From: Escherichia coli
GTDB lineage: Bacteria > Pseudomonadota > Gammaproteobacteria > Enterobacterales > Enterobacteriaceae
Assembly (NCBI RefSeq): GCF_044324875.1
Contig: NZ_CP172188.1
Length of the DNA: 64,000 nt
Strand: one strand, 5' to 3'
Shown here: positions 3,038 through 63,600 of the stretch, piece after piece
Numbering within the stretch: the first letter of the stretch is position 1
How the letters are laid out: each line of letters opens with the position of its first letter
The notes under the pieces: generated by a model
The model's database searches: none
Told to the model about the DNA's origin: nothing
What the model saw: only the letters and a program-made list of their open reading frames with translations
Program-made: the position numbers and the translations under genes

Positions 3038-3050
3038 TTGTGTTAGAAAA
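3038..3050 (+). promoter_or_regulatory. copy of dispersed motif TTGTGTTAGAAAA, ~70 bp upstream of the Ref-like gene
   Basis: One of at least nine intergenic occurrences (see findings). Confidence 0.35.
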
Positions 3051-3118
3051 TCAATTTTGAATATCTAACTGTTTTGATCAATCATAGAAAAATAGCTGAA
3101 AAGTAAGAGGCAGCCATC

Positions 3119-3697
3119 ATGCAGAAACAGAGCTATTGGGAGAAACAGAGACAAAAAGCCATGCAAAAATTGGCTGACCCAGCCTGGCGAGAGGAACAAA
3201 GGGCAAAGCGCCTTCAACAAGCTCAACGCCAGCAGCAGCGAGCGAGAGAAAAAGCCGCATCGCCTGAATATCGGCAAAAGAAAATTGAAAAAGCAAAGCA
3301 ATATGAACAGCGGAGAAAAGATAAAGCTGTATCCGCTCCGCCCAAAAAAACACGCACGTCACGCGGCCTGAAGGGCAGATCACTCACAGCCGATGAACGC
3401 CGGATACAGACCGCTATCGGTACTCTCCCCTGCATTGCCTGCCATATTCACGGGCAACATAGCCCAGTGGTATCCCTGCACCATATCTTCGGGAGAACGG
3501 CAGAGAACGCACATAAATATGTCCTCCCTTTGTGTAAATGGCACCACCAGTACGCAGCGCCAGCCGAGGTCCGAGAACAATATCCCTGGCTGGTCCCTGT
3601 TCATGCTGATGGAAAAATAGGCGGAAAAGCAGATTTCATACGGCACAATGCCGATGAAATGGCGTTGTATCAGATGGCGATTGAATTAATAAATTAG
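3119..3697 (+). CDS. Ref-family (DUF968-like) HNH-type nuclease-like protein
   Basis: 192 aa; basic low-complexity N-terminus then LPCIACHIHGQ...SLHHIFG...LPLCKWHH Cys/His motifs; GAGG Shine-Dalgarno. Confidence 0.5.
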   Translation: MQKQSYWEKQRQKAMQKLADPAWREEQRAKRLQQAQRQQQRAREKAASPEYRQKKIEKAKQYEQRRKDKAVSAPPKKTRTSRGLKGRSLTADERRIQTAIGTLPCIACHIHGQHSPVVSLHHIFGRTAENAHKYVLPLCKWHHQYAAPAEVREQYPWLVPVHADGKIGGKADFIRHNADEMALYQMAIELIN

Positions 3698-3707
3698 TTT
3701 TCTAACA
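3698..3707 (-). promoter_or_regulatory. copy of dispersed motif (reverse orientation, TTTTCTAACA) just after the Ref-like gene
   Basis: Reverse complement of the TGTTAGAAAA core. Confidence 0.3.
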
Positions 3708-4028
3708 TTTTAAGTTGAATTGTAAATTTCTCCGATGTACATTCACTACCGATTGGCACACCGGTCAACTTTTTGAGACAAACTGTTTAGTTTTTCGTAT
3801 TATTGCCCCCGCCATACCTATGGCGGTGCAATATAGGTGGCTGAAAAGCCCCCGTTGACTCACGGTGTTCCAGCCTTTATTGCGCCGCCACCAGACCGTG
3901 GAACAGTCGATGGCGGCTCCGAAAGCAAGGAGTCACTACACTATGAACAACTACAGTCTTTTCCCATCACTCGTCGTCCACCACTCACGCGATAATCTGC
4001 ATTCTTTATTCGCGCTGGGGGAGTCAAA

Positions 4029-4196: not shown

Positions 4197-4301
4197 AATA
4201 CTGACTGTTGCGCCCTGGCATTATCGTGGGGTATATTTCTACGGCACCTTAGAAAAACGGGTGCCGGGATTGGAACCCCGGATAATGCAAAAGGCGACAC
4301 A

Positions 4302-4323
4302 GACGCCGAAAGCGTCTTTTCTT
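4302..4323 (+). terminator. rho-independent terminator candidate
   Basis: gacgc-cgaaa-gcgtc hairpin followed by ttttctt. Confidence 0.5.
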
Positions 4324-4329
4324 GTGTCA

Positions 4330-4508
4330 TGCCATCGCACAGCCATACGTAGCGTTTAGCTCAGAGATCAATGGTAGTGCTGGCTGGGCTGCCGAAAGGC
4401 AGGCCGGTTCCCTTTTGCGCCGGTAGTTCCAACCCAGTCAGTGCTACCGCCATTGAGATTGGAACCTCACGCGGTAGCTCCTTAAATTAGCAAAAGGAGG
4501 CTGCCAAT
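4330..4508 (+). promoter_or_regulatory. structured leader of antirepressor module A (differs from the leaders of modules B/C/D)
   Basis: Hairpins ctgcc-gaaa-ggcag (~4388-4401) and gttccaa...ttggaac (~4415-4458); AGGAGG before the ATG at 4509. Confidence 0.3.
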
Positions 4509-11920: not shown

Positions 11921-12012
11921 TTTCACAGCGTCACCAGGCCTGGTGACGCTGCTTTCTCGCATTTCACACCCTGCATACAGTTTTCCCCAGGTTATGACTG
12001 AGGGGCTTTGTT

Positions 12013-17186: not shown

Positions 17187-18167
17187 GTGGCCCAGGAGTT
17201 ACAACAATATTTTCTACAGTCAGTGCTCATTAACGATAACAAAGTGCCACGAGACTGGATTTTTACCGCAGTATATGTAGAAAAAACCAGCCTCAAAGCC
17301 CCTTTGCTAAAACTGGAAATTCATGACGCTACCGGCACCGTAATTGATGACTGGAAAGCCAAATACGGTGCATCGCTGGTGGCTGAAATGGGCGATCCAA
17401 ACGGTAATGCAGGCACTTTTAAAACAGATTTCTTTGTTACGTCTGCAATGCTGGCTGGTGATGTTGTTACCGTTATTGCTGTCAGTGAAGACGTGCGCAG
17501 GTTTAAGATCCCCTCCCCGCGCACAAATTTACATACCAACAAAACACCAGACGCTATATTCAAGGCATATTCCGGCAAGCTTAAAATTACCAGCAGCGTG
17601 CTAAAACGCGCAGTTACATATCATCTGAATGCCGGTGACAAACCGTCAAAAATGCTTTCGGAGATAGCGCGAGACAAAGGTGCATTATGTTGGGTATGCC
17701 GGGGGGAATTTAACTTTTACACCCTGGATGATCTGATGAAGCAAACGCCATCATTTACCTACGAGGGGAATAACCCTAAAGCAGAATACACTTTGTCCAA
17801 AATGCGCCTACTCCAACAGGAACATGCGACAACAGCAAAGAATCAATATCGTTTTGTTGGGTATTCCATGACCGATGGCTACGTCGAATATGGCGATAGC
17901 TCACTCCCAGTGCGTTATATATCCGACTCTGATATGGAAACTCTTCGCAATATGCAGCTGTCTCTCGTCCCCAAAATGGATATAGAAGTCGCAGGCAATC
18001 CGGATATAAAACCGGGAATGGTAATAGAGATTATCGTATACCGCTATGACCAGGAAAACCGCATTGATGAATCAATGCCCCGCAAGCTGATAGTAAAAAA
18101 TGTTGCGCACTTTGAAGACCGCGTAGGCTACACAACACGAATGATATTAGGAGTGCCGAACAAATGA
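17187..18167 (+). CDS. baseplate / tail-associated protein (unknown)
   Basis: 326 aa; stop overlaps the start of the spike-like gene. Confidence 0.4.
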   Translation: MAQELQQYFLQSVLINDNKVPRDWIFTAVYVEKTSLKAPLLKLEIHDATGTVIDDWKAKYGASLVAEMGDPNGNAGTFKTDFFVTSAMLAGDVVTVIAVSEDVRRFKIPSPRTNLHTNKTPDAIFKAYSGKLKITSSVLKRAVTYHLNAGDKPSKMLSEIARDKGALCWVCRGEFNFYTLDDLMKQTPSFTYEGNNPKAEYTLSKMRLLQQEHATTAKNQYRFVGYSMTDGYVEYGDSSLPVRYISDSDMETLRNMQLSLVPKMDIEVAGNPDIKPGMVIEIIVYRYDQENRIDESMPRKLIVKNVAHFEDRVGYTTRMILGVPNK

Positions 18168-18817
18168 AGCGTAGAGCGCAAATTGTTGGAACTGTGCACC
18201 CGGCAGGGCTTATGCGTGCTCAGGTCCGTGTTTTACCAGACTGGAATGGCGTTCCTGATGACGATCTACCCTGGGCAGAATACCTGTTACCCATAGGTAA
18301 CGCGTTTGTACCTACAGTAAAAGGCGACCTGGTATGGGTAGAGTTTCCTTATCTGGATGTTAATGGTCGAATTGATACCAGACGCCCAATGATAGTTGGC
18401 GCAGCTCAGGATGCGCCTGGCGGAGTACCAAACGTCGCGCCGGAGGCGTCAGGCAATGGTAGCGGCTGGACGCCACCAGAAGTAGACGGAGCGCCTCCCC
18501 GCCCGCAATTTTCGGCGACAAAAGATTTCGTGATTCACCGCAACAATGTGCTCGAAGTGCGAACGGCTGGCGGTGGATATGAAATAGCGAATACGGCAGC
18601 AGGCTCAAGGATTGGAATGAATGAATCAGGGCAGATATACATCATTGGTCCGGCTGATGTAGTAGTGAATGCGGGAGGGAGTGTTAACGTCAAATCAGCC
18701 GATAACATCAGCGTTAATGGCAAAAACATTACTGTGACAGCCGACGAAAATATTGATTTCAAGGCTGGAGGCACCTTCCAGGCTATCGCAAGCAACTTTG
18801 ATTTCAAGAAGGGATAG
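18164..18817 (+). CDS. baseplate central spike protein (gpV-like)
   Basis: N-terminal region VRVLPDWNGVPDDDLPWAEYLLPIG... and a Gly-rich C-terminal repeat-like region (ISVNGKNITVTADENIDFKAGG) resembling gpV-type spikes. Confidence 0.5.
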   Translation: MKRRAQIVGTVHPAGLMRAQVRVLPDWNGVPDDDLPWAEYLLPIGNAFVPTVKGDLVWVEFPYLDVNGRIDTRRPMIVGAAQDAPGGVPNVAPEASGNGSGWTPPEVDGAPPRPQFSATKDFVIHRNNVLEVRTAGGGYEIANTAAGSRIGMNESGQIYIIGPADVVVNAGGSVNVKSADNISVNGKNITVTADENIDFKAGGTFQAIASNFDFKKG

Positions 18818-18826
18818 AAAACACAT

Positions 18827-18870
18827 CCAATTGTGTTAGATAATTGAACAGAATTTTCTAACACAATTGG
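18827..18870. promoter_or_regulatory. perfect 14-bp inverted repeat carrying the dispersed motif in both orientations, upstream of rdgC
   Basis: CCAATTGTGTTAGA (18827-18840) ... TCTAACACAATTGG (18857-18870), 16-bp spacer. Confidence 0.45.
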
Positions 18871-18876
18871 TGAAAC

Positions 18877-19782
18877 ATGAGATCAGTCGCTTTCAAAAAC
18901 ATCTTCATCTATCGTCTTTCACGTGAAGTTAACTGGAGTGCCGCAGAAGTATCCGATGCTCTTAGCAAATTCGTGTTTACTCCTTGCGGTTCTCAGGACA
19001 CAGCTAAAGTCGGTTGGACACCTGTTCTTGGTGACAACCTCACCCATGAATACCAGGGTTTTCTGCTAATACAGCATAAGCGAGAAGAAAAAATTCTCCC
19101 CTCGCAGGTGCTCAAGGAAGAGTTGCAGAAAAAAGTCCTGAAACTCGAAGAAGAGCAAGCCCGCAAGCTGAAGAAAACGGAAAGAGACAGTCTTAAAGAT
19201 GAAGTCCTGCATTCCCTTTTGCCTCGCGCGTTCACGAGAAAATCACTCGCCAAAATCCTGATCGACCGCAGCAACCATCTGGTATTCGTTGAGGCAAGCA
19301 GCGCCAAAAAGGCAGAGGACCAGCTGGCTTTATTGCGAAAATCGCTCGGCAGCCTGCCTGTCATTCCATTCACACCACGCGAACCGCTGGAAATTACAAT
19401 GACCGAGTGGTTTAAAAACGGCTTCCCTGCCGGATTTACAGCAGGTGAAGACGCCACATTAAAGGGTCTGCTCGATAATGGTGGTGCCGTTCGCTGCAAC
19501 AAAGTTGATCTACAGTCCGACGAGATTATGTCTCACATTGAGGCGGGGAAAGTAGCTACGACCGTTGCAATTAACTGGATGGAACGCGCGTCGTTCAGAG
19601 TCAACGATGATATGAGTATCAAAGCCCTGACATTCTGTGATGATCTCTATGACCAGAACGACGATATCGACCGGGAGGATGTAGCACAACGATTTGATGC
19701 TGATTTCGTGCTCTTTACGGGCGAATTATCTGCACTGTTTAACGCGCTGGTGGAGGCCATTGGCGGTGAAGCAGAACGATAA
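18877..19782 (+). CDS. rdgC: recombination-associated protein RdgC homologue
   Basis: 301 aa; near-colinear similarity to E. coli RdgC as I recall it ([35 protein letters not shown]..., [26 protein letters not shown]). Confidence 0.85.
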
Positions 19783-19798
19783 TAACCGACAGCTTGTT

Positions 19799-20446
19799 GT
19801 GAGTCTTTGTGATTTTACGGGGGCAATGGTTGCCCCCTGGCTGGAATACGGTGTCGATGCCGCTATCGTCGATCCACAGCACTTATCGACCAGTGACGAG
19901 CGGATGCAATCAGGTGCCGTTCTGACGCGTATTAGTGCGATCATCGATAGCGATGAAGTATACGCTTTTCTTCGTAAGAATTTGCAGCGCATCGTGTTTC
20001 TGGCCGGGTTCCCACCGTGTACTGACCTGGCTGTTTCCGGCGCGCGCTGGTTTTCTGACAAGGCTAATAAAGATCCGGTTTTCCAGTTCAAAGCAATGCA
20101 GGTTGTCTGGCAGTGTTACGACATTGCAAAGATGATTGGTTGCCCGTACATGATTGAAAACCCGGTCAGCCAAATATCGACATTCTGGCGTAAACCTGAT
20201 CACATCTTCCATCCTTACCACTTCACTGCATATTGCAAGGAAGACAATTACACCAAAAAAACATGCCTCTGGAGCGGGCAAGGCTTTGTCATGCCTGATG
20301 CCCTAATGGACGAATCATTAGGCAAGCCAGATAACAGAATCCATACCGCGCCACCTGGACCTGAAAGGGCTAATTTTCGAAGTGCTACTCCGCATGGATT
20401 CGCAAAGGCAGTTTTCGAAGCGAATAAGGGGGTGCTCTATGAGTAA
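19799..20446 (+). CDS. DNA cytosine-C5 methyltransferase-like protein (short; start uncertain)
   Basis: LCDFTGAM (motif I-like), GFPPC (PC catalytic motif-like), MIENPV (ENV-like); candidate starts GTG 19799 or ATG 19826; the frame is open from 19694. Confidence 0.4.
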   Translation: MSLCDFTGAMVAPWLEYGVDAAIVDPQHLSTSDERMQSGAVLTRISAIIDSDEVYAFLRKNLQRIVFLAGFPPCTDLAVSGARWFSDKANKDPVFQFKAMQVVWQCYDIAKMIGCPYMIENPVSQISTFWRKPDHIFHPYHFTAYCKEDNYTKKTCLWSGQGFVMPDALMDESLGKPDNRIHTAPPGPERANFRSATPHGFAKAVFEANKGVLYE

Positions 20447-21344
20447 ATCTATAGCAAGCATAGCCATAGAAAAACAGGATACGATGGCTGAAATTAGCTA
20501 TATGCGCACCATTCGGACTCAGGATGAATATGAGCGCCCGATCTTCAAATGGGTAGGCGGTAAATTCTCAGAGTTGCCTACAGTGCTTGAGCATCTACCA
20601 CACGGCAAGCGGTTAATAGAACCATTCGTTGGTGGCGGTTCCGTATTTACAAATGCAGGATTTCGCCACAACCTGCTTAATGATATTAACGGTGACCTGA
20701 TTAACTTCTATCAGACATTGCAGCGAGAAGGACATTCGCTCGTCACGCTGTCATATAGTTTTTTCCAAAATTACAACAACGCTGACGCTTACCTCGAAGT
20801 GCGTGAGGCATTTAACAGAGGAAAGTATGACCAGCTACATCATGCTGCCGCCTTTTTGTACCTTAATCGGCACTGTTTTAATGGCGTAACGCGGTACAAC
20901 CAAAATGGCGAGTTCAACGTGGGGTATGGCAAATACAAAGCGCCCTACTTCCCACATGCAGAGATGGAGGCATTTTTGGCTGATGACGTACTCAAAAACA
21001 CGTCCTTTGTATCAGGTGACTTTGCTGGCGTCATCGAGGCGGCTGGTGAAGGCGATGTGATTTTTTGCGATCCGCCGTATGAACCGCTGCCGGATACAGA
21101 AGGGTTTACCAGTTATTCAGGAAATAGCTTCCGTTTCGACGAACAGAAACGGCTGGTATCTCTATTGGTGGAAGCCCACCAGCGCGGCGCTAAGGTAGTG
21201 ATAACAAATAGTGGTGCGCCAAACATCCGTGAACTATATGAAGGAAACGGGTTTAAAGTACATCATATGGCAGCCAGACGGTCGGTTTCCTGCAAGGCGT
21301 CAACACGTGTAGTTGCTAACGATATAATTGCAATAATGAAGTAA
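20439..21344 (+). CDS. dam: DNA adenine methyltransferase (Dam-like, N6-adenine)
   Basis: FKWVGGK, EPFVGGGSVF, DPPY motifs; AAGGGGG Shine-Dalgarno; start overlaps the upstream stop. Confidence 0.8.
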   Translation: MSKSIASIAIEKQDTMAEISYMRTIRTQDEYERPIFKWVGGKFSELPTVLEHLPHGKRLIEPFVGGGSVFTNAGFRHNLLNDINGDLINFYQTLQREGHSLVTLSYSFFQNYNNADAYLEVREAFNRGKYDQLHHAAAFLYLNRHCFNGVTRYNQNGEFNVGYGKYKAPYFPHAEMEAFLADDVLKNTSFVSGDFAGVIEAAGEGDVIFCDPPYEPLPDTEGFTSYSGNSFRFDEQKRLVSLLVEAHQRGAKVVITNSGAPNIRELYEGNGFKVHHMAARRSVSCKASTRVVANDIIAIMK

Positions 21345-21392: not shown

Positions 21393-23054
21393 TTAACCTA
21401 ACTTCGCCCAGGTATCACGCAGCCCAACGGTGCGGTTAAATACCGGTTTTTCCGCCGTAGAATGGCGGCTATCGAGGCAGAAGTAACCTTCACGCTCAAA
21501 CTGGAATGCTTTACCCGCAACCGCATCTTTCAGCGACGGTTCAGCAAAGCCCTGTTTGATCACCAGCGATTCCGGGTTAATCACCGACAGGAAATCATCC
21601 GCAGCACCTGGGTTAGGCACGCTGAACAGACGATCGTACAGGCGGATTTCAACCGGCAGCGCATGTGCCGCGCTCACCCAGTGAATAACGCCTTTCACTT
21701 TACGACCATCTGCCGGATCTTTGCTTAAGGTGTCGGCGTCATAAGTACAGAAGATGGTGGTGATATTGCCTTCGGCATCTTTCTCCACGCGTTCAGCCTT
21801 AATGACGTAAGCATTACGCAGACGCACTTCTTTACCCAGCACCAGACGTTTGTACTGCTTGTTAGCTTCTTCGCGGAAATCGGCGCGGTCGATCCAAATC
21901 TCACCGCTAAACGGCACCTGACGGCTACCCATTTCCGGTTTGTTCGGATGGTTCGGCATGGTGACCATTTCGCCTTCGCCCTGGTAGTTTTCGATAACCA
22001 GTTTCACCGGATCGATAACCGCCATTGCGCGCGGCGCATTTTCGTTGAGATCTTCACGGATGCAGGATTCCAGCGACGCCATCTCAATGGTGTTGTCCTG
22101 CTTGGTCACGCCGATGCGTTTGCAGAACTCACGAATAGAAGCCGCAGTGTAACCACGACGACGCAGACCGGAAATGGTCGGCATACGCGGGTCATCCCAG
22201 CCTTCAACGTGTTTGTCGGTCACCAGCAGGTTCAGCTTACGCTTGGACATCACGGTGTATTCCAGATTCAGGCGCGAGAATTCGTACTGGCGCGGGTGAA
22301 CAGGAATGGTGATGTTGTCCAGCACCCAGTCGTACAGGCGACGGTTGTCCTGGAACTCAAGCGTACACAGAGAGTGCGTAATACCTTCCAGCGCATCGCT
22401 GATGCAATGGGTGAAGTCGTACATCGGGTAGATGCACCACTTGTTGCCAGTCTGGTGGTGTTCAGCAAATTTAATGCGGTACAGCACCGGATCGCGCATT
22501 ACGATAAATGGCGACGCCATGTCGATTTTCGCACGCAGGCAGGCTTTACCTTCTTCAAAACCACCGGCACGCATTTTTTCGAACAGCGCCAGGTTCTCTT
22601 CAACGCTGCGATCGCGGTACGGGCTGTTTTTACCCGGCTGCGTCAGGGTGCCGCGGTATTCGCGGATCTGTTCCGGCGTCAGTTCGTCAACATACGCCAG
22701 GCCTTTGTTGATCAGTTCAACAGCATAGGCGTGGAGCTGATCAAAATAATCGGAGGAGTAACGGATGTTGCCAGACCAGTGAAAACCTAACCATTCAACG
22801 TCGTTTTTAATCGACTCGACGTACTCGATATCTTCTTTTACCGGGTTAGTGTCGTCGAAACGCAGGTTGCACTGGCCTTTATAGTCCTGGGCGATCCCGA
22901 AGTTCAGGCAGATAGATTTCGCATGACCAATATGCAGATAGCCATTCGGTTCCGGCGGGAAACGGGTATGTACTGTGGTGTGCTTACCACTGGCCAGATC
23001 TTCATCGATGATCTGACGAATAAAGTTAGTCGGGCGGGCTTCTGCCTCACTCAT
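21393..23054 (-). CDS. glnS: glutamine--tRNA ligase (GlnRS)
   Basis: 553 aa, colinear with E. coli GlnS over the whole length as I recall it (HIGH motif, VMSKR motif); C-terminus ...WAKLG. Confidence 0.95.
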
Positions 23055-23224: not shown

Positions 23225-23289
23225 TTGGAACCAAAAAGGATGTAAAGGTGCACCAAATTAGTGGTGTATTGGTGCACCTTTGGTTCAAG
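23225..23289. promoter_or_regulatory. palindromic partition-site-like element downstream of the parA/parG operon
   Basis: TTGGAACCA ... AAAGGTGCACCAA-12 bp-TTGGTGCACCTTT ... GGTTCAAG; related 9-mers recur upstream of parA (24270-24480). Confidence 0.4.
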
Positions 23290-27870: not shown

Positions 27871-27896
27871 GCTTCACAAAATCTATATAGCTATTT

Positions 27897-27909
27897 TATG
27901 TTAGAAAAA
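27897..27909 (+). promoter_or_regulatory. copy of dispersed motif (TATGTTAGAAAAA) ~50 bp upstream of the module B promoter
   Basis: See findings. Confidence 0.35.
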
Positions 27910-27961
27910 TAATTTGAATTTTCGAACATAAACAATAAAATAAATCATCAAAAATTTGATG

Positions 27962-27990
27962 TTGATCTTCCATGTTTTCAGGCTTATATT
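27962..27990 (+). promoter_or_regulatory. sigma70-like promoter of module B
   Basis: TTGATC - 17 bp - TATATT; identical sequence in module D and, reverse-complemented, in module C. Confidence 0.5.
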
Positions 27991-27996
27991 CACGCC

Positions 27997-28237
27997 GTTG
28001 CAGCAAATTCTGCGACCGGGTTTAGCAGCCTGAATGTACATGCGGACAACCGCAGATATCCGATATTGCGGTATTTTTGTGTCCGTAAAACCATGTTACG
28101 CCCGAATTATGGTGGGGCGTGATGGGGAGGCTTCGGCCTGCTGGTTTCATGTACGCCAGTCTGCTAACCCCGTCACGTCCTGCCACCCGTTTAGCAGCGG
28201 GTAGCAGGTTGTTAAACCTGTACATGAGGCCGTAACT
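27997..28237 (+). ncRNA. structured leader with an embedded c4-like antisense regulator and two target sites (module B)
   Basis: Elements TTAGCAG/GTACATG at 28022-28042 and 28191-28226 (the second abuts the GAGG Shine-Dalgarno) are complementary to CATGTAC/CTGCTAA at 28148-28167; the complementarity is kept by compensatory changes in modules C and D. Confidence 0.5.
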
Positions 28238-28462
28238 ATGGTTAATGCCAATCCTTGCTCACGTCCAGAATTCATCTGGCGTTTTCACTCCCTGCAAAAA
28301 CACTGCGATCACTTCGCAATTGCCGCAACTGAAAAAGAAGCCCGTTCTCTGATCCCTGATCAGTATGGTGTTCTTACTGGTCGTTTCTCTACTTCCCCAC
28401 AACCAAACACTAATCCCTGGTATCGCAATATTACCAATCCCGGAATTGCGGAGGCACACTGA
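28238..28462 (+). CDS. small protein upstream of the antirepressor (Icd-position ORF, module B)
   Basis: 74 aa; TGATG coupling to the next gene. Confidence 0.65.
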   Translation: MVNANPCSRPEFIWRFHSLQKHCDHFAIAATEKEARSLIPDQYGVLTGRFSTSPQPNTNPWYRNITNPGIAEAH

Positions 28463-29382
28463 TGGATATCTGCATTCTTGAAAAGCCATCAATGACCAGC
28501 ATTGAGATCGCGGAGCTGGTGGGAAGTCGTCCAGATAACGTAAAAATATCAATAGAGCGCCTGGCTAAATCTGGAGTTATTCAACTTCCTGCATTGCAGG
28601 TTTTCGAAAAAATCAATAACTTAGGACTACGCCGTAGTGTCGAGGCTTACGTCTTCGAAGGCGAGCAAGGCAAACGAGACAGCATTATTGTCGTTGCGCA
28701 GCTCTCTCCCGAATTCACCGCCCGGCTGGTGGACCGCTGGCGCGAACTGGAAGAACAAGTACGCCAGCCGTTGACCGAAATAGAGATGATCGCCGCAATG
28801 GCTGCAAATGCAGTTCAGCAGCAAAAGCGGCTTCATGTTGTTGAGTCAAAGGTTAGCCAGGTTGCTGAAACCGTCGAGCAGATCAAGAAGGGCAACATGC
28901 CAGAAGGTTACATTGGCTACCGCCAGCTGGCGGCGAAATGTGGCCTGACTGAAGCCAAATGTCGCAACCTGGTTAACGCTTTCCGGATTCCCACCGATAC
29001 GCATGAGTTTTTAACTCCAGATGGTTTGCTTGCGCGACGCTCCATTGTGGCCCTGGCCCCCTTCCGGAAAGCCTTTAAGCAGGTGATGTCGGAGGCAGAA
29101 CCACGCAACAAACGCTGGTATCATCCGAAGATGGGGCTGTTTCAGGCAATCCATCATCCTGTGCCTGAAAGCCCAAAGGATAATCTGTCACTACATACCG
29201 TCAGAGAGAAGATCAGGACTGGATACGCAACAGTGTGTCGTCGTTCTTCCTGGCCTGAAGGTATATGGGTGTGGCCCGAAGGTGGATCACGAAAGCACTG
29301 GCGCACTATCCGGGACGGGAAAATCCATGCTATTGATTTAGCGCCAGAGGATATTGTTGCTACGGACTGGATTGTTAGTTAA
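28462..29382 (+). CDS. phage antirepressor-type protein (Rha-like N-domain), module B
   Basis: 306 aa; N-terminus ...MTSIEIAELVGSRPDNVKISIERL...; conserved C-terminal domain. Confidence 0.65.
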   Translation: MDICILEKPSMTSIEIAELVGSRPDNVKISIERLAKSGVIQLPALQVFEKINNLGLRRSVEAYVFEGEQGKRDSIIVVAQLSPEFTARLVDRWRELEEQVRQPLTEIEMIAAMAANAVQQQKRLHVVESKVSQVAETVEQIKKGNMPEGYIGYRQLAAKCGLTEAKCRNLVNAFRIPTDTHEFLTPDGLLARRSIVALAPFRKAFKQVMSEAEPRNKRWYHPKMGLFQAIHHPVPESPKDNLSLHTVREKIRTGYATVCRRSSWPEGIWVWPEGGSRKHWRTIRDGKIHAIDLAPEDIVATDWIVS

Positions 29383-29417: not shown

Positions 29418-29822
29418 CTAAAAATCTGTTCGCTGTCGCCATGCGTTTTTTAACTCAGGAATATCCGCCATTTCAATTAACTTGCGAAGTCCAGCACTGA
29501 CTTTCCCATTGCCAACCATAGCAAGCCAATCTCTTACAGCTTTCGGCATGTAGAGCGTTGCAGTTACCGGCTCTTCAACCCTGGCAGGACATCCGCATAC
29601 AGGCCATTTAATTGATTCCATAACTTCGGATGCCGGGGTGAGGGCGGGGACATTGAGTATATCTCTACCAGAAAACTGGATAACGATCCGTTCAGCGAGC
29701 GAGAGTATCTCACTTTCGGCAAGAATTGATGCCAACTGCGCCTCAACAAGAAAGCGACTTGTTGTGTTCAGAGAGTGGCTCTTAGCGCCATTTTTATACG
29801 AAACAAAGATTCGATACGCCAT
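29418..29822 (-). CDS. hypothetical protein (134 aa)
   Basis: ORF; its start lies 12 bp from a copy of the dispersed motif (29834-29848). Confidence 0.45.
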   Translation of the reverse strand: MAYRIFVSYKNGAKSHSLNTTSRFLVEAQLASILAESEILSLAERIVIQFSGRDILNVPALTPASEVMESIKWPVCGCPARVEEPVTATLYMPKAVRDWLAMVGNGKVSAGLRKLIEMADIPELKNAWRQRTDF

Positions 29823-29980
29823 AACTCTAATGATTTGTGTTAGAAAACTAAAATTAAATCACATAACAACATGTGTGTTAATAGATTTTATTTTACTAAA
29901 CCTATTGACTAAATCACAAAGTAGGTATTGTTAGCCCGTCAAAAGAACCTTCACGCCGCGCCCGAATTTAGGGCTTAACC

Positions 29981-31678
29981 GTGAATAAAAACATTCAGCC
30001 AGCTCGTGATCGCGAGCGCGAGATTATGAATCGGGCGGCAAGCGTCATGGCTATGACCGTCGATCCGACCACCGATGCAGCAGGCAACATGATTGCTGAC
30101 CAGGCAGTAATGATGGAAAACCTGGATAAAGCAATCCAGAAAGTGCCTATGTTTGAAGGCGTAAATCCAGAGGTCGCTCGTCAGATCACTGGTGGGTGGG
30201 CTATGTCTCTGCATGAGTATAAACGTCAACATGGTCATTACCCGGCAAGTGACATCCTGGCGAACGCACACATGGCTCTTGAACGCCTGATGACTGAATG
30301 TGCCAGTGATACCCATGAAGGCACGGGTAAGGCAATGTTTGAGTCTGTCGCGCAATCAATGCGTAGCTCTGACGGCGTAATGAAAGTTGCTCAATATGCT
30401 GCTCTAATTCTGCCTGCCTCTCTGGGCGCTGCTACCAGTGATGCCTGTACTTTTGTTCCTTGTGATCGTGACGAGTCAAATATTTATGAACTGGTCAACG
30501 TAGCAGGCACAAAATTCGGCACCTTCAAACAAGGTGACGAACTGAATATGCAGTCAGCTGGTGTTTATTCTCAAATGAAGCGCCTGTATACCCTTTCCAC
30601 TAAAGGGGATGGCAGCACCAAAACCTTCCAGTTCGACATCCAAAATTTTGAGGGACAATCCTGCCCGCTTCGCGCTGGTTATAACAAACTGCTGATCAAC
30701 CGCAAACCGTCCAAAGTTGACGACGGCGATGGCAACCTTTATTTCAATGCTAAAGACAGCAAAGGTAATGCTTTCTCAGCGACTGCCAAAGTTGCCTATG
30801 ACACTGGTGTCATTGACATTACATTTACCCAGGCTCCGCCAGAAGGTACTGAAATTGCTGTTCAGGTCGAAATTAACATCGAGCGCAATCCAAGCCTGAT
30901 TCCGGTGATCAACCAGGCTATGCGTAAGTACGAAGTTCGTCCGTCCCAGTACGTAATTGCTTCCGAACACACCGTAATGTCCGCTTCCGATTTAAGCCGT
31001 GAACACGGCCTTGAATTGGCGGCACTTCAGTTCTCCGCAATGCGGAACTGGATCTCCCATGAAACCGACATCATGCGTCTGCGCACCCTGGTATTCCATA
31101 CCGTTTATGGTCGTGAATTTGATGTGGCTCTGCCTGAAGCTCAAAACTATGAGTCCTGGGTCGGCCTCCTGCGCCACGCAGTAAACGCCCTGTCTCAGGA
31201 AATGGCAAACCGCACCCTGACCACAGGTATTCGCGGTGGCTTCGCAGGTGGTGACGCAGCTAACTTCCTGCGTTCTCTGCCTCCACAGCACTTCCAAATC
31301 GCGCCGGGCTACGTTCAGTCACCGTATGTGCAGTACATCGGCACCCTGTTTGGCACGATTCGTATTTACGAAGTGCCGCAGCCTGTGTGTGAGCAATTCA
31401 AGGCTCAGGGATATGACTTAGGTCTGGATGACATTTATTTCTATGGTCGCGGTGAAGGCATCGGTAAAGCCGGGCTGATCGCTGGTGATGCGGTCCCAGC
31501 AATCCCGTATGTGCACGAAACCAATCCATCTCTCGTTAACCGCACCACTCTCTGGGGTAGTGCTATCAACGAAGTCCACCCGCGCAACGGTGAGAATTAT
31601 TTCGCCCGCCTGCGTCTGACTCGTGCCAAAGAAGGTGCTATCGACATGCTGACAGGCAAGGTTAACGAAAAAAAGTGA
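29981..31678 (+). CDS. large virion structural protein (possibly major head protein)
   Basis: 565 aa; GTG start with AGGG Shine-Dalgarno; function inferred from position at the head of a structural operon and from size only. Confidence 0.35.
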   Translation: MNKNIQPARDREREIMNRAASVMAMTVDPTTDAAGNMIADQAVMMENLDKAIQKVPMFEGVNPEVARQITGGWAMSLHEYKRQHGHYPASDILANAHMALERLMTECASDTHEGTGKAMFESVAQSMRSSDGVMKVAQYAALILPASLGAATSDACTFVPCDRDESNIYELVNVAGTKFGTFKQGDELNMQSAGVYSQMKRLYTLSTKGDGSTKTFQFDIQNFEGQSCPLRAGYNKLLINRKPSKVDDGDGNLYFNAKDSKGNAFSATAKVAYDTGVIDITFTQAPPEGTEIAVQVEINIERNPSLIPVINQAMRKYEVRPSQYVIASEHTVMSASDLSREHGLELAALQFSAMRNWISHETDIMRLRTLVFHTVYGREFDVALPEAQNYESWVGLLRHAVNALSQEMANRTLTTGIRGGFAGGDAANFLRSLPPQHFQIAPGYVQSPYVQYIGTLFGTIRIYEVPQPVCEQFKAQGYDLGLDDIYFYGRGEGIGKAGLIAGDAVPAIPYVHETNPSLVNRTTLWGSAINEVHPRNGENYFARLRLTRAKEGAIDMLTGKVNEKK

Positions 31679-37111: not shown

Positions 37112-38110
37112 TTAACTAACAATCCAGTCCATAGCAATAACATCCTCTGGAGCTAAATCAATAGCATGGATTTTCCCGTCACGGATGGTGCGCCAGTGCT
37201 TTCGTGATCCACCTTCGGGCCATACCCATACACCTTCAGGCCAGGAAGAACGACGACACACTGTTGCGTATCCAGTCCTGATCTTCTCTCTGACGGTATG
37301 CAGTGACAGATTATCTTTTGGGATTTCCGGTAAAGGATGATGGATTGCCTGAAACAGCCCCATCTTCGGATGATACCAGCGTTTGTTGCGTGGTTCTGCC
37401 TCCGACATAACCTGCTTGAAGGCTTTCCGGAAGGGGGCCAGGGCCACAATGGAGCGTCGGGCAAGCAAACCATCTGGAGTTAAAAACTCATGCGTATCGG
37501 TGGGAATCCGGTAAGCGTTGACAAGGTTGCGGCATTTGGCTTCAGTCAGGCCACATTTCGCCGCCAGCTGGCGGTAGCCAATGTAGCCTTCCGGCATATT
37601 GCCTTTCTTGATTTGCTCGACGGTTTCAGCGACTTTGGACACTTGTGCCGATACCTCGGCTACCTGGGCATTTACGGCGTTAATCCGGCGTTCATGTTCA
37701 AGATGCATTTGCGCCATTTCAGCCAGGATTTCGGCTTTTGATTTTAGCGGTGAGTGCTCCGGTATTAATTGCTTAATACGAAAATAGCTGTTTACCAGCT
37801 CACGTTGCACTTGCCAGGCCAGATCGTCATTGAATGACTTAACAATCATTAGATAACCGGACTCAGTGAACACGCGCAAACCGCGCGGGGGGACATTAAT
37901 TCCAAAAGTGTCAAAAACGCCCTTTTCAGAGTAATCAATAAGATAGGTATCTACACCATCAACAAAACGGTGCTTGTTACGATGGAAAGTTGTTTTAGCT
38001 AATCCTTTTGGTCGCTCGTGCACCTCATCAATCATCTCAAAGGTCACTACACGCTGATTTTTATATTCGAGAGTCGGGAATGGTTTGTTATTGATAGTTA
38101 CTGCGTCCAT
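37112..38110 (-). CDS. phage antirepressor-type protein with a KilA-N/ORF6N-like N-domain, module C
   Basis: Start at MDAVTINNKPFPTLEYKNQRVVTFEMIDEVHERPKG... (TAATG coupling with the upstream small ORF); C-terminal ~180 aa nearly identical to modules A and B; the ORF track extends to 38197. Confidence 0.6.
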   Translation of the reverse strand: MDAVTINNKPFPTLEYKNQRVVTFEMIDEVHERPKGLAKTTFHRNKHRFVDGVDTYLIDYSEKGVFDTFGINVPPRGLRVFTESGYLMIVKSFNDDLAWQVQRELVNSYFRIKQLIPEHSPLKSKAEILAEMAQMHLEHERRINAVNAQVAEVSAQVSKVAETVEQIKKGNMPEGYIGYRQLAAKCGLTEAKCRNLVNAYRIPTDTHEFLTPDGLLARRSIVALAPFRKAFKQVMSEAEPRNKRWYHPKMGLFQAIHHPLPEIPKDNLSLHTVREKIRTGYATVCRRSSWPEGVWVWPEGGSRKHWRTIRDGKIHAIDLAPEDVIAMDWIVS

Positions 38111-38325
38111 TAATGCACCTCCACGCAGTTCATTGGGCGGTTCCAGTAGGTCAAAACGTCCAGGGCATCGAGTTTGAAGCGAGCCGCAAAAATGCACGGA
38201 TCTGTAGGAAGAAATGAACGCGCTTCAGCCTCAGTAGCTGCCATTACGGTGATATAGGTGTGTTTTGTGCAGGAATAAAAGCGCCAGATGAATTCTGGAC
38301 GTGAGCAAGGATTGGCATTAACCAT
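38110..38325 (-). CDS. small protein upstream of the antirepressor (Icd-position ORF, module C)
   Basis: 71 aa; paralogue of 4509-4724. Confidence 0.65.
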   Translation of the reverse strand: MVNANPCSRPEFIWRFYSCTKHTYITVMAATEAEARSFLPTDPCIFAARFKLDALDVLTYWNRPMNCVEVH

Positions 38326-38566
38326 AGTTACGGCCTCATGTACAGGTTTAACAACCTGCTACCCGCTGTCAAACAGGTGGCAGGGCGTGACAGGGTTGAC
38401 AGACTGGCGTACATGAAACCAGCAGGCCGAAGCCTCCCCATCACGCCCCACCATAATTCGGGCGTAACGTGGTTTACGGACACAAAAATACCGCAATATC
38501 GGAAATCTGCGGATGTCCGCATGTACATTCAGGCTGTCAAACCTGGTCGCAGAATTTGCTACGACG
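38326..38566 (-). ncRNA. structured leader with a c4-like antisense regulator (module C)
   Basis: Minus-strand elements TTGACAG/GTACATG (targets) and CATGTAC/CTGTCAA (antisense) in the same arrangement as module B. Confidence 0.5.
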
Positions 38567-38571
38567 GCGTG

Positions 38572-38600
38572 AATATAAGCCTGAACATCTGGAAGATCAA
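38572..38600 (-). promoter_or_regulatory. sigma70-like promoter of module C
   Basis: Reverse complement of TTGATC-17-TATATT. Confidence 0.5.
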
Positions 38601-38653
38601 CATCAAATTGTTGATGATTTATTTTATTATTCATGTTTGAAAATTCAAATTAT

Positions 38654-38666
38654 TTTTCTAACACAA
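38654..38666 (-). promoter_or_regulatory. copy of dispersed motif upstream of the module C promoter
   Basis: TTTTCTAACACAA on the plus strand = TTGTGTTAGAAAA on the minus strand. Confidence 0.35.
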
Positions 38667-63012: not shown

Positions 63013-63027
63013 TTTGTGTTAGAAAAT
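63013..63027 (+). promoter_or_regulatory. copy of dispersed motif upstream of the module D promoter
   Basis: TTTGTGTTAGAAAAT. Confidence 0.35.
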
Positions 63028-63100
63028 TAATTTGCTGTTTCTAAATCGGAATGTATGATCTGCATCATCGACTGAAGTCATCCATTGCTGAAATTTTTAG

Positions 63101-63129
63101 TTGATCTTCCATGTTTTCAGGCTTATATT
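63101..63129 (+). promoter_or_regulatory. sigma70-like promoter of module D
   Basis: TTGATC-17-TATATT, identical to module B. Confidence 0.5.
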
Positions 63130-63135
63130 CATGCC

Positions 63136-63375
63136 GTCGTAGCAAATTCTGCGACCAGGTTTGACAGCCTGAATGTTAGTGCGGACAACCGCAGATTTCC
63201 GATATTGCGGTATTTTTGTGTCCGTAAACCGCGTTACGCCCGAATTATGGTGGGGCGTGATGGGGAGGCTTCGGCCTGCTGGTTTCACTAACGCCAGTCT
63301 GTCAACCCTGTCACGTCCTGCCACCTGTTTGACAGCGGGTAGCAGGTTGTTAAACCTGTTAGTGAGGCCGTAACT
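63136..63375 (+). ncRNA. structured leader with a c4-like antisense regulator (module D)
   Basis: TTGACAG/GTTAGTG at 63161-63181 and 63329-63364; complementary CACTAAC/CTGTCAA at 63286-63305. Confidence 0.5.
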
Positions 63376-63600
63376 ATGGTTAATGCCAATCCTTGCTCAC
63401 GTCCAGAATTCATCTGGCGTTTCCACTCCCTGCAAAAACACTGCGATCACTTCGCAATTGCCGCAACCGAAAAAGAAGCCCGTTCTCTGATCCCTGATCA
63501 GCATGGTGTTCTTACTGGTCGTTTCTCTACTTCCCCACAACCAAACACTAATCCCTGGTATCGCAATATTACCAATCCCGGCATTGCGGAGGCACACTGA
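63376..63600 (+). CDS. small protein upstream of the antirepressor (Icd-position ORF, module D)
   Basis: 74 aa, near-identical to the module B copy. Confidence 0.65.
   Translation: MVNANPCSRPEFIWRFHSLQKHCDHFAIAATEKEARSLIPDQHGVLTGRFSTSPQPNTNPWYRNITNPGIAEAH

Follow-up and report, generated by a model that had tools for sequence, protein, structure and literature searches.

The window analysed here, meaning the whole 64-kb stretch of Escherichia coli contig NZ_CP172188.1, is 93.6% identical over the region to Escherichia phage D6 and 100% identical to the E. coli phage-plasmid pPSS-10_3 (NZ_AP027688.1). On the strength of these two identities, it is a D6-like plasmid prophage of the P1 type. 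In E. coli, Salmonella and Shigella, phage-plasmids of the D6 group are common, with 119 plasmid records. The locus of interest lies between a late gene and an operon, all on the plus strand. The late gene (18164-18817) is a homolog of P1 baseplate gene 5 by the annotation of D6, and a gap of 59 nt separates it from rdgC (18877-19782; PF04381, E = 5.8e-103), the homolog of P1 hrdC and the first gene of the operon. The end of rdgC is overlapped by a homolog of D6 orf64 (19766-20446), a putative DNA-cytosine methylase according to the D6 annotation, for which no Pfam match was found. The last gene of the operon (20382-21344; PF02086) encodes a Dam-type N6-adenine methyltransferase, homologous to the C-terminal half of P1 dmt. 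Further along, on the opposite strand, this phage-plasmid carries a full-length gene for glutaminyl-tRNA synthetase (21393-23054), which is annotated in D6 as well.

The gap in front of rdgC is occupied by a palindrome. The original prediction of a perfect 14-bp inverted repeat is borne out, the left arm CCAATTGTGTTAGA (18827-18840) and its exact reverse complement TCTAACACAATTGG (18857-18870) being separated by 16 nt, and so is its placement, as the upstream reading frame stops at 18817 and the right arm ends 7 nt ahead of the rdgC ATG (18877). In the source DNA the order reads GGATAG, AAAACACAT, CCAATTGTGTTAGA, TAATTGAACAGAATTT, TCTAACACAATTGG, TGAAAC, ATG. The repeat is larger than was predicted. 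A repeat finder extends the arms inward to 19 nt each (18827-18845 and 18852-18870, both given on the plus strand) with 95% complementarity, yielding a stem with a single T:T mismatch (18841/18856), the left T of which lies in the inward extension, and a loop of 6 nt, GAACAG (18846-18851). Among all perfect inverted repeats in the window with spacers of up to 40 nt, this is the longest, and only one of 200 first-order Markov simulations reached arms of 14 bp. Two other symmetric elements were noted elsewhere in the window. One is a 26-bp perfect palindrome with no spacer (11926-11951; CAGCGTCACCAGG joined to CCTGGTGACGCTG), intergenic and near the homologs of gene 26 and mat. The other is a 13-bp perfect inverted repeat (23244-23281; AAAGGTGCACCAA, 12 nt, TTGGTGCACCTTT) about 190 nt upstream of the glutaminyl-tRNA synthetase gene, which could be an operator or a terminator.

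Each arm of the rdgC palindrome contains one copy of a dispersed 13-mer, TTGTGTTAGAAAA, whose core, T(G/A)TGTTAGAAAA, is asymmetric, such that the A/T-rich tails of the two copies face the centre. The predicted right half-site (18854-18866, minus strand) is an exact copy of TTGTGTTAGAAAA, and the predicted left half-site, TTGTGTTAGATAA (18831-18843, plus strand), differs from the 13-mer core by one mismatch. With up to two mismatches allowed, the 13-mer is found nine times in the window, compared with 2.3 expected and a count that none of 100 shuffles reached, and five times in the 27 kb of the source plasmid that lie outside it, compared with 0.77 expected. The strong sites are all intergenic. 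They precede ref, the rdgC-methylase operon, three c4-icd-antirepressor modules, c1, lpa and a pmgS-like gene, with the site at the c1 homolog lying 22 nt ahead of its ATG. Equivalent sites are carried by D6, those at c1, lpa, ref and icd included. A further copy of the 13-mer core (29835-29847, plus strand), apparently monovalent, is flanked by an orf52-like gene on the minus strand (29418-29822) and by the gene for the major capsid protein (29981).

The palindrome at rdgC had also been described as the only place where the motif forms a symmetric pair. This holds for perfect pairs; in a weaker form the pairing recurs at no fewer than five other sites, in which a second arm matching 6 to 8 of 10 positions follows at the same spacing of 16 nt. 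These are the ref site (3038-3073, plus strand; 10/10 and 6/10), upstream of ref (3119-3697); the lpa site outside the window (9/10 and 8/10); and three immI sites. The first immI site (27896-27931, plus strand; 9/10 and 8/10) is upstream of c4-a1b1 (27984), C4 RNA (28105-28190), an icd-like reading frame and an anti-repressor gene (28238-29382). The second (38631-38666, minus strand; 10/10 and 7/10) is upstream of c4-a1b1, C4 RNA (38373-38458) and an anti-repressor gene (37112-38197), and the third (63014-63049, plus strand; 10/10 and 6/10) of c4-a1b1 (63123), C4 RNA (63243-63328) and icd (63376-63600). When the sites other than rdgC were oriented by their strong arm and the inverted weaker arm was scored downstream, the summed second-arm matches came to 33 at the 16-nt offset versus about 18 at other offsets. 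The promoter predicted at immI (TTGAAT-16-TAAAAT) has its start downstream of both arms, so pairing of the arms there would act on DNA and not on RNA. A second near-perfect bivalent site (AATGTGTTAGA and TCTAACATATT, again with 16-nt spacing) occurs just past the pmgS-like gene at 30035-30070 of a relative, L043 (NZ_LR890273.1), and thus near-perfect double sites can arise at other operators.

The three immI modules were identified with Rfam and PHROGs, and each comprises a c4-a1b1 target, a C4 antisense RNA, an icd-like reading frame and an anti-repressor. Altogether this one phage-plasmid possesses four C4 antisense-RNA genes (4367-4454, 28105-28190 and 63243-63328 on the plus strand and 38373-38458 on the minus strand) and four immI-like modules, three of them with a1b1 targets (27984-28036, 38526-38578 on the minus strand, and 63123-63175) and with icd-like and anti-repressor reading frames; Rfam 15 additionally places isrK at 4244-4322. 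The D6 annotation lists just two icd/anti-repressor pairs. It is unusual for one repressor to oversee several parallel anti-repressor switches. A weak extra copy of the motif, AATGTTAGAAAACTAATTT (3692-3712, minus strand), lies just past the ref stop codon and is adjoined by a promoter-like sequence, TTGAAT-17-TACATT, which may drive small reading frames and the fourth C4/icd/ant module.

The positions of these sites invite comparison with phage P1, in which 22 dispersed, asymmetric operators of the repressor C1 have been described with the consensus ATTGCTCTAATAAATTT (PMC8546580), and in which control by C1 is reported for dmt, ref, kilA, ssb and ban (PMC4713147). The GenBank record of P1 shows the C1 operator Odmt (formerly Op68, ATTGCTCTAATAAATAT) and the promoter Pdmt before uhr-hrdC-dmt, Olpa before lpa, and bivalent operators ahead of c1 (Oc1ab) and of ban (Obanab). 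Because the D6-type sites precede homologs of P1 operons that are annotated or reported as C1-controlled, the motif, as judged from this correspondence, marks the same regulon as the P1 C1 operators. The recognition sequence itself has diverged. Aligned by hand, the P1/P7 consensus ATTGCTCTAATAAATTT and the D6-type consensus (A/T)TTGTGTTAGAAAA(C/T)TA match at only 11 of 17 positions, and for this reason the D6-type site is, on its sequence, one of different specificity and not an operator of P1 immunity.

A candidate for the protein that reads this site is encoded by both D6 and the source plasmid, in each of which c1 sits between pacB and a recombinase gene, as in P1. Over 240 aa, D6 C1 (345 aa) and P1 C1 share 21% identity (E = 2e-8), which identifies the D6 protein, by pairwise alignment, as a distant homolog. 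The C1 of the source plasmid, likewise of 345 aa (WP_032342029.1 in pPSS-10_3), is 90% identical to that of D6, and from lineage to lineage C1 identity is 81-90%. Searches of Pfam and PDB with D6-type C1 returned no family and no solved relative, and a tblastn search of the phage collection with D6 C1 returned D6 records only, the homology to P1 C1 being visible only in the direct pairwise comparison.

An unbiased scan for promoters predicted a single sigma-70-like promoter at the locus, TAGAAA-18-GATAAT, with 9 of 12 consensus positions matched. Its predicted -10 element, GATAAT (18839-18844, plus strand), falls within the left arm, and the predicted weak -35 element, TAGAAA (18815-18820, plus strand), lies an 18-bp spacer upstream. 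Conservation was assessed in an alignment of 35 relatives, in which RdgC identity falls as low as 67%. The blocks that are invariant in this alignment are GATAAT (18839-18844), TTTTCTAACA (18854-18863) and the stop and start codons. GATAAT is kept in all 35 of 35 relatives, including the most distant one, L036, whose left half-site is degenerate (TTGTGGAC) but whose right half-site and inner distance of 20 nt are retained. Conservation of the -35 element is confounded because TAGAAA shares bases with the stop codon that ends the preceding gene. The sequence AGATAA is unique to the left arm at rdgC, with AGAAAA standing in its place in all other copies of the motif; it is thus the conserved T:T mismatch that turns GAAAAT into GATAAT and thereby creates the -10 element. 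The centre is free to vary in sequence among the relatives (GAACAG, AATATG, AACGCG, CACTTT and GAGTTT, among others), and its length is constant in all 35. We infer that transcription starts near 18851, and the RNA beginning at the predicted start is unstructured (-3.7 kcal/mol, z = +1.5). A promoter of the immI kind, with its -35 element in the spacer, was considered at rdgC and rejected; its TTGAAC is confined to the lineage of the window, and no -10 element fits before the ATG. In L007 (NZ_MK356558.1, the 169-kb Salmonella plasmid pSa1423-160k), disruption of the left arm is accompanied by a centre that is short by 1 nt (positions approximately 470-560). Its upstream baseplate gene being truncated, this element resembles a D6-like prophage that has been rearranged or is decaying.

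Taken with the over-representation and positions of the motif, these features make it likely that the palindrome is a bivalent operator for D6-type C1, placed over the sigma-70 promoter of an early rdgC-orf64-dam operon. The left copy of the core would hold the -10 element GATAAT, and the right copy would span about +1 to +16. In a lysogen, two repressor molecules, or one oligomer, would cover -24 to +20 and shut out RNA polymerase; upon inactivation of C1, transcription would proceed from near 18851 and give an unstructured 26-nt leader. The proposal in the original prediction that the palindrome is a repressor site built from the dispersed motif gains a comparative context from the occurrence of that motif before homologs of P1 C1-controlled operons and from the placement of P1 uhr-hrdC-dmt under Odmt (Op68), and it is supported by that context, the interpretation as a whole being supported in part. 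Its further suggestion of higher affinity or cooperativity from two perfect half-sites is a reasonable one on the architecture of the site.

By analogy, the palindrome is most likely the functional counterpart of P1 Odmt (Op68)/Pdmt, endowed with the two-site architecture of Obanab and Oc1ab. It resembles Odmt/Pdmt in belonging to a dispersed set of operators and in its association with a sigma-70 promoter and with a homologous operon, in which an RdgC-family gene is followed by a Dam-type methylase. The P1 operon differs in containing the extra gene uhr and in having a different upstream neighbour. Odmt is also monovalent, being a single 17-bp site (ATTGCTCTAATAAATAT) that abuts the -35 element, whereas the rdgC site is bivalent and is predicted to cover the -10 element and the start site. 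With Obanab (Op72ab) and Oc1ab (Op99ab) it shares two inverted, asymmetric half-sites whose A/T-rich ends point inward, forming an imperfect palindrome over a promoter. In these P1 operators, however, the half-sites overlap by 6 bp in a unit of 28 bp, while those at rdgC do not overlap and occupy 38 bp (from ATTG to CAAT), which makes the rdgC unit longer by 10 bp, or approximately one helical turn. Unlike those of Obanab and Oc1ab, the rdgC arms also continue past the core as a covarying palindrome. Several points weigh against the operator model: the -35 element, besides being weak, shares bases with a stop codon; the homologous operator of P1 is monovalent and located upstream of the -35 element, not over the -10; and the outer 5-7 pairs of the stem lie outside the operator consensus and yet covary between lineages, for which the model by itself gives no account. 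A full-text search of the literature for the motif strings returned nothing relevant.

The last of these points deserves closer attention. The outermost 5-7 pairs of the stem vary by lineage and nevertheless remain complementary, reading CCAATTG/CAATTGG in the window and CCATTTG/CAAATGG in D6. The group of LR890273 retains 15-16 contiguous pairs with wholly different outer sequence (GCAAAACTG/CAGTTTTGC), and in the group of CP026821 (TCAATG/CATTGGA) one nucleotide has been lost symmetrically from both arms. In a gap-free alignment, 83% of cells pair, and at five pairs both partners are altered in 3-7 cells. The outer five pairs reach a covariation score of 0.217, compared with 0.090 when shuffled (reached in none of 500 shuffles) and at most 0.102 in slid controls, although these changes come from only three or four lineages, the core is invariant, and templated correction of the palindrome would look alike. 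Intermediates altered in a single arm also occur, on the left in L037 and on the right in L026, L028, L041 and CP095127, while L018 is changed in both arms. Specificity of the repressor was rejected as the cause of this covariation, in that the bases 5' of TGTG differ from operator to operator within one genome, none of them being conserved, and the C1 proteins themselves are 81-90% identical. What the covarying outer stem suggests instead is either an RNA hairpin in late transcripts that read through from gene 5 or self-correction of the palindrome.

In the widest form of the hairpin explanation, which we offer tentatively and think unlikely, the locus has two layers: the invariant cores would be the bivalent C1 operator over the promoter, and the covarying outer stem would form a hairpin in read-through RNA that masks the start of rdgC. 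A precedent for such masking is the fold-back inhibition of IS10/Tn10, in which an inverted repeat present in read-through transcripts hides the ribosome-binding site of transposase. The likeness is hypothetical. If the promoter does lie within the repeat, the two arms would occur together, and fold across the region of the start, only in foreign or read-through transcripts; the rdgC ribosome-binding site differs from that of IS10/Tn10 in being only partly within the stem, and in one lineage it is outside. Were the two-layer arrangement true, synthesis of RdgC and the methylases would depend solely on the early promoter under C1 control, from which RNA begins in the loop and is devoid of the left arm, and one 44-bp palindrome would serve both as a DNA operator and as a translational gate set by where the transcript starts.

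An RNA hairpin as such, a possibility already raised in the original prediction, could coexist with an operator, and we consider it improbable as the explanation of the palindrome. Read-through transcripts from the late tail/baseplate genes would form a 19-bp stem, which might hide the weak ribosome-binding site of rdgC (GGUG, 18869-18872) and thereby restrict translation of rdgC to RNA made from the gene's own promoter. Alternatively, the stem might serve to stabilise the late mRNA at its 3' end or to process that end. The predicted stem is stable (-23.7 kcal/mol, z = -4.7). Read-through RNA folds at -28.8 kcal/mol against -3.7 for the predicted transcript of the operon, which could not fold the hairpin because its predicted start is inside the loop, and the terminator scan predicts none in the gap from gene 5 to rdgC. 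Covariation of the outer stem and the 15-16 pairs that the LR890273 lineage maintains despite its different outer sequence are in keeping with selection on RNA. So is the predominance, among single-arm changes, of those compatible with G.U pairing on the plus strand (approximately six or seven, versus one A.C), although these are few, partly non-independent events (P of about 0.04-0.06). The core, however, is invariant instead of covarying, and its motif is also used where no hairpin is transcribed. The fixed length of the loop is what protein phasing would predict. L036 lacks the hairpin and yet retains the -10 element and the right half-site, the likely Shine-Dalgarno sequence of the CP026821 lineage falls outside the stem, and Rfam 15 has no match at gathering score in 18800-18900.

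The extended perfect symmetry could instead be a mutational by-product, in which template switching copies changes from one arm to the other without selection while the operator continues to work; we find this very doubtful as the whole account. Templated correction of quasi-palindromes is an established mutational mechanism in E. coli. It would fit the symmetric changes seen even among relatives that are 99% identical, as in L018, both of whose arms show the change (TTATG/CATAA), and the closely related L037, in which it is confined to the left arm. It would also fit the outer flanks, which are not part of the repressor consensus, and the symmetric loss of one nucleotide in the CP026821 lineage. 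Against this, the T:T asymmetry has not been corrected in any of the 35 relatives, unless selection for the -10 element opposes it, and a bias toward G.U on the plus strand is not predicted.

That some other dimeric regulator, such as the late activator Lpa, a Cro- or Coi-like protein or an HTH antitoxin, occupies the site in place of C1 is highly improbable. The palindromic shape would suit dimers, the window does encode HigA-like HTH proteins, and the assignment to C1 is itself deduced from sequence. The motif, however, stands before c1, lpa and ref and before the anti-repressor modules, a set of targets to be expected of a master repressor and not one of late genes, and the late-promoter box of P1 (ATGTGACTT plus a -10 element) is unrelated to it. 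A reading of the locus as a late promoter was likewise rejected, as ATGTGACTT plus -10 occurs at chance level (8 versus 5.9 expected) and the targets of the motif are not late genes. Last, an intrinsic terminator of the late tail operon is scarcely credible, for despite the stable stem directly past the gene 5 stop codon, that stem is AT-rich with no U-tract on either strand, and a terminator scan of both strands at the palindrome found none.

The bivalent C1 operator thus remains the likely reading of the rdgC palindrome. For the D6 group, of whose immunity circuitry we found no description in the accessible literature, it provides a testable operator consensus, T(G/A)TGTTAGAAAA(C/T)TAA, together with a map of the putative regulon. 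The covarying outer stem offers a small, clean case in which selection for an RNA hairpin might be separated from mutational self-correction of a palindrome. If the rdgC site operates as proposed, it shows how half-sites spaced one helical turn wider than in P1 can make up a strong two-site operator in a C1-type system. It also suggests that RdgC and the Dam/Dcm-type methylases may be silenced more tightly in the lysogen than any other early genes.
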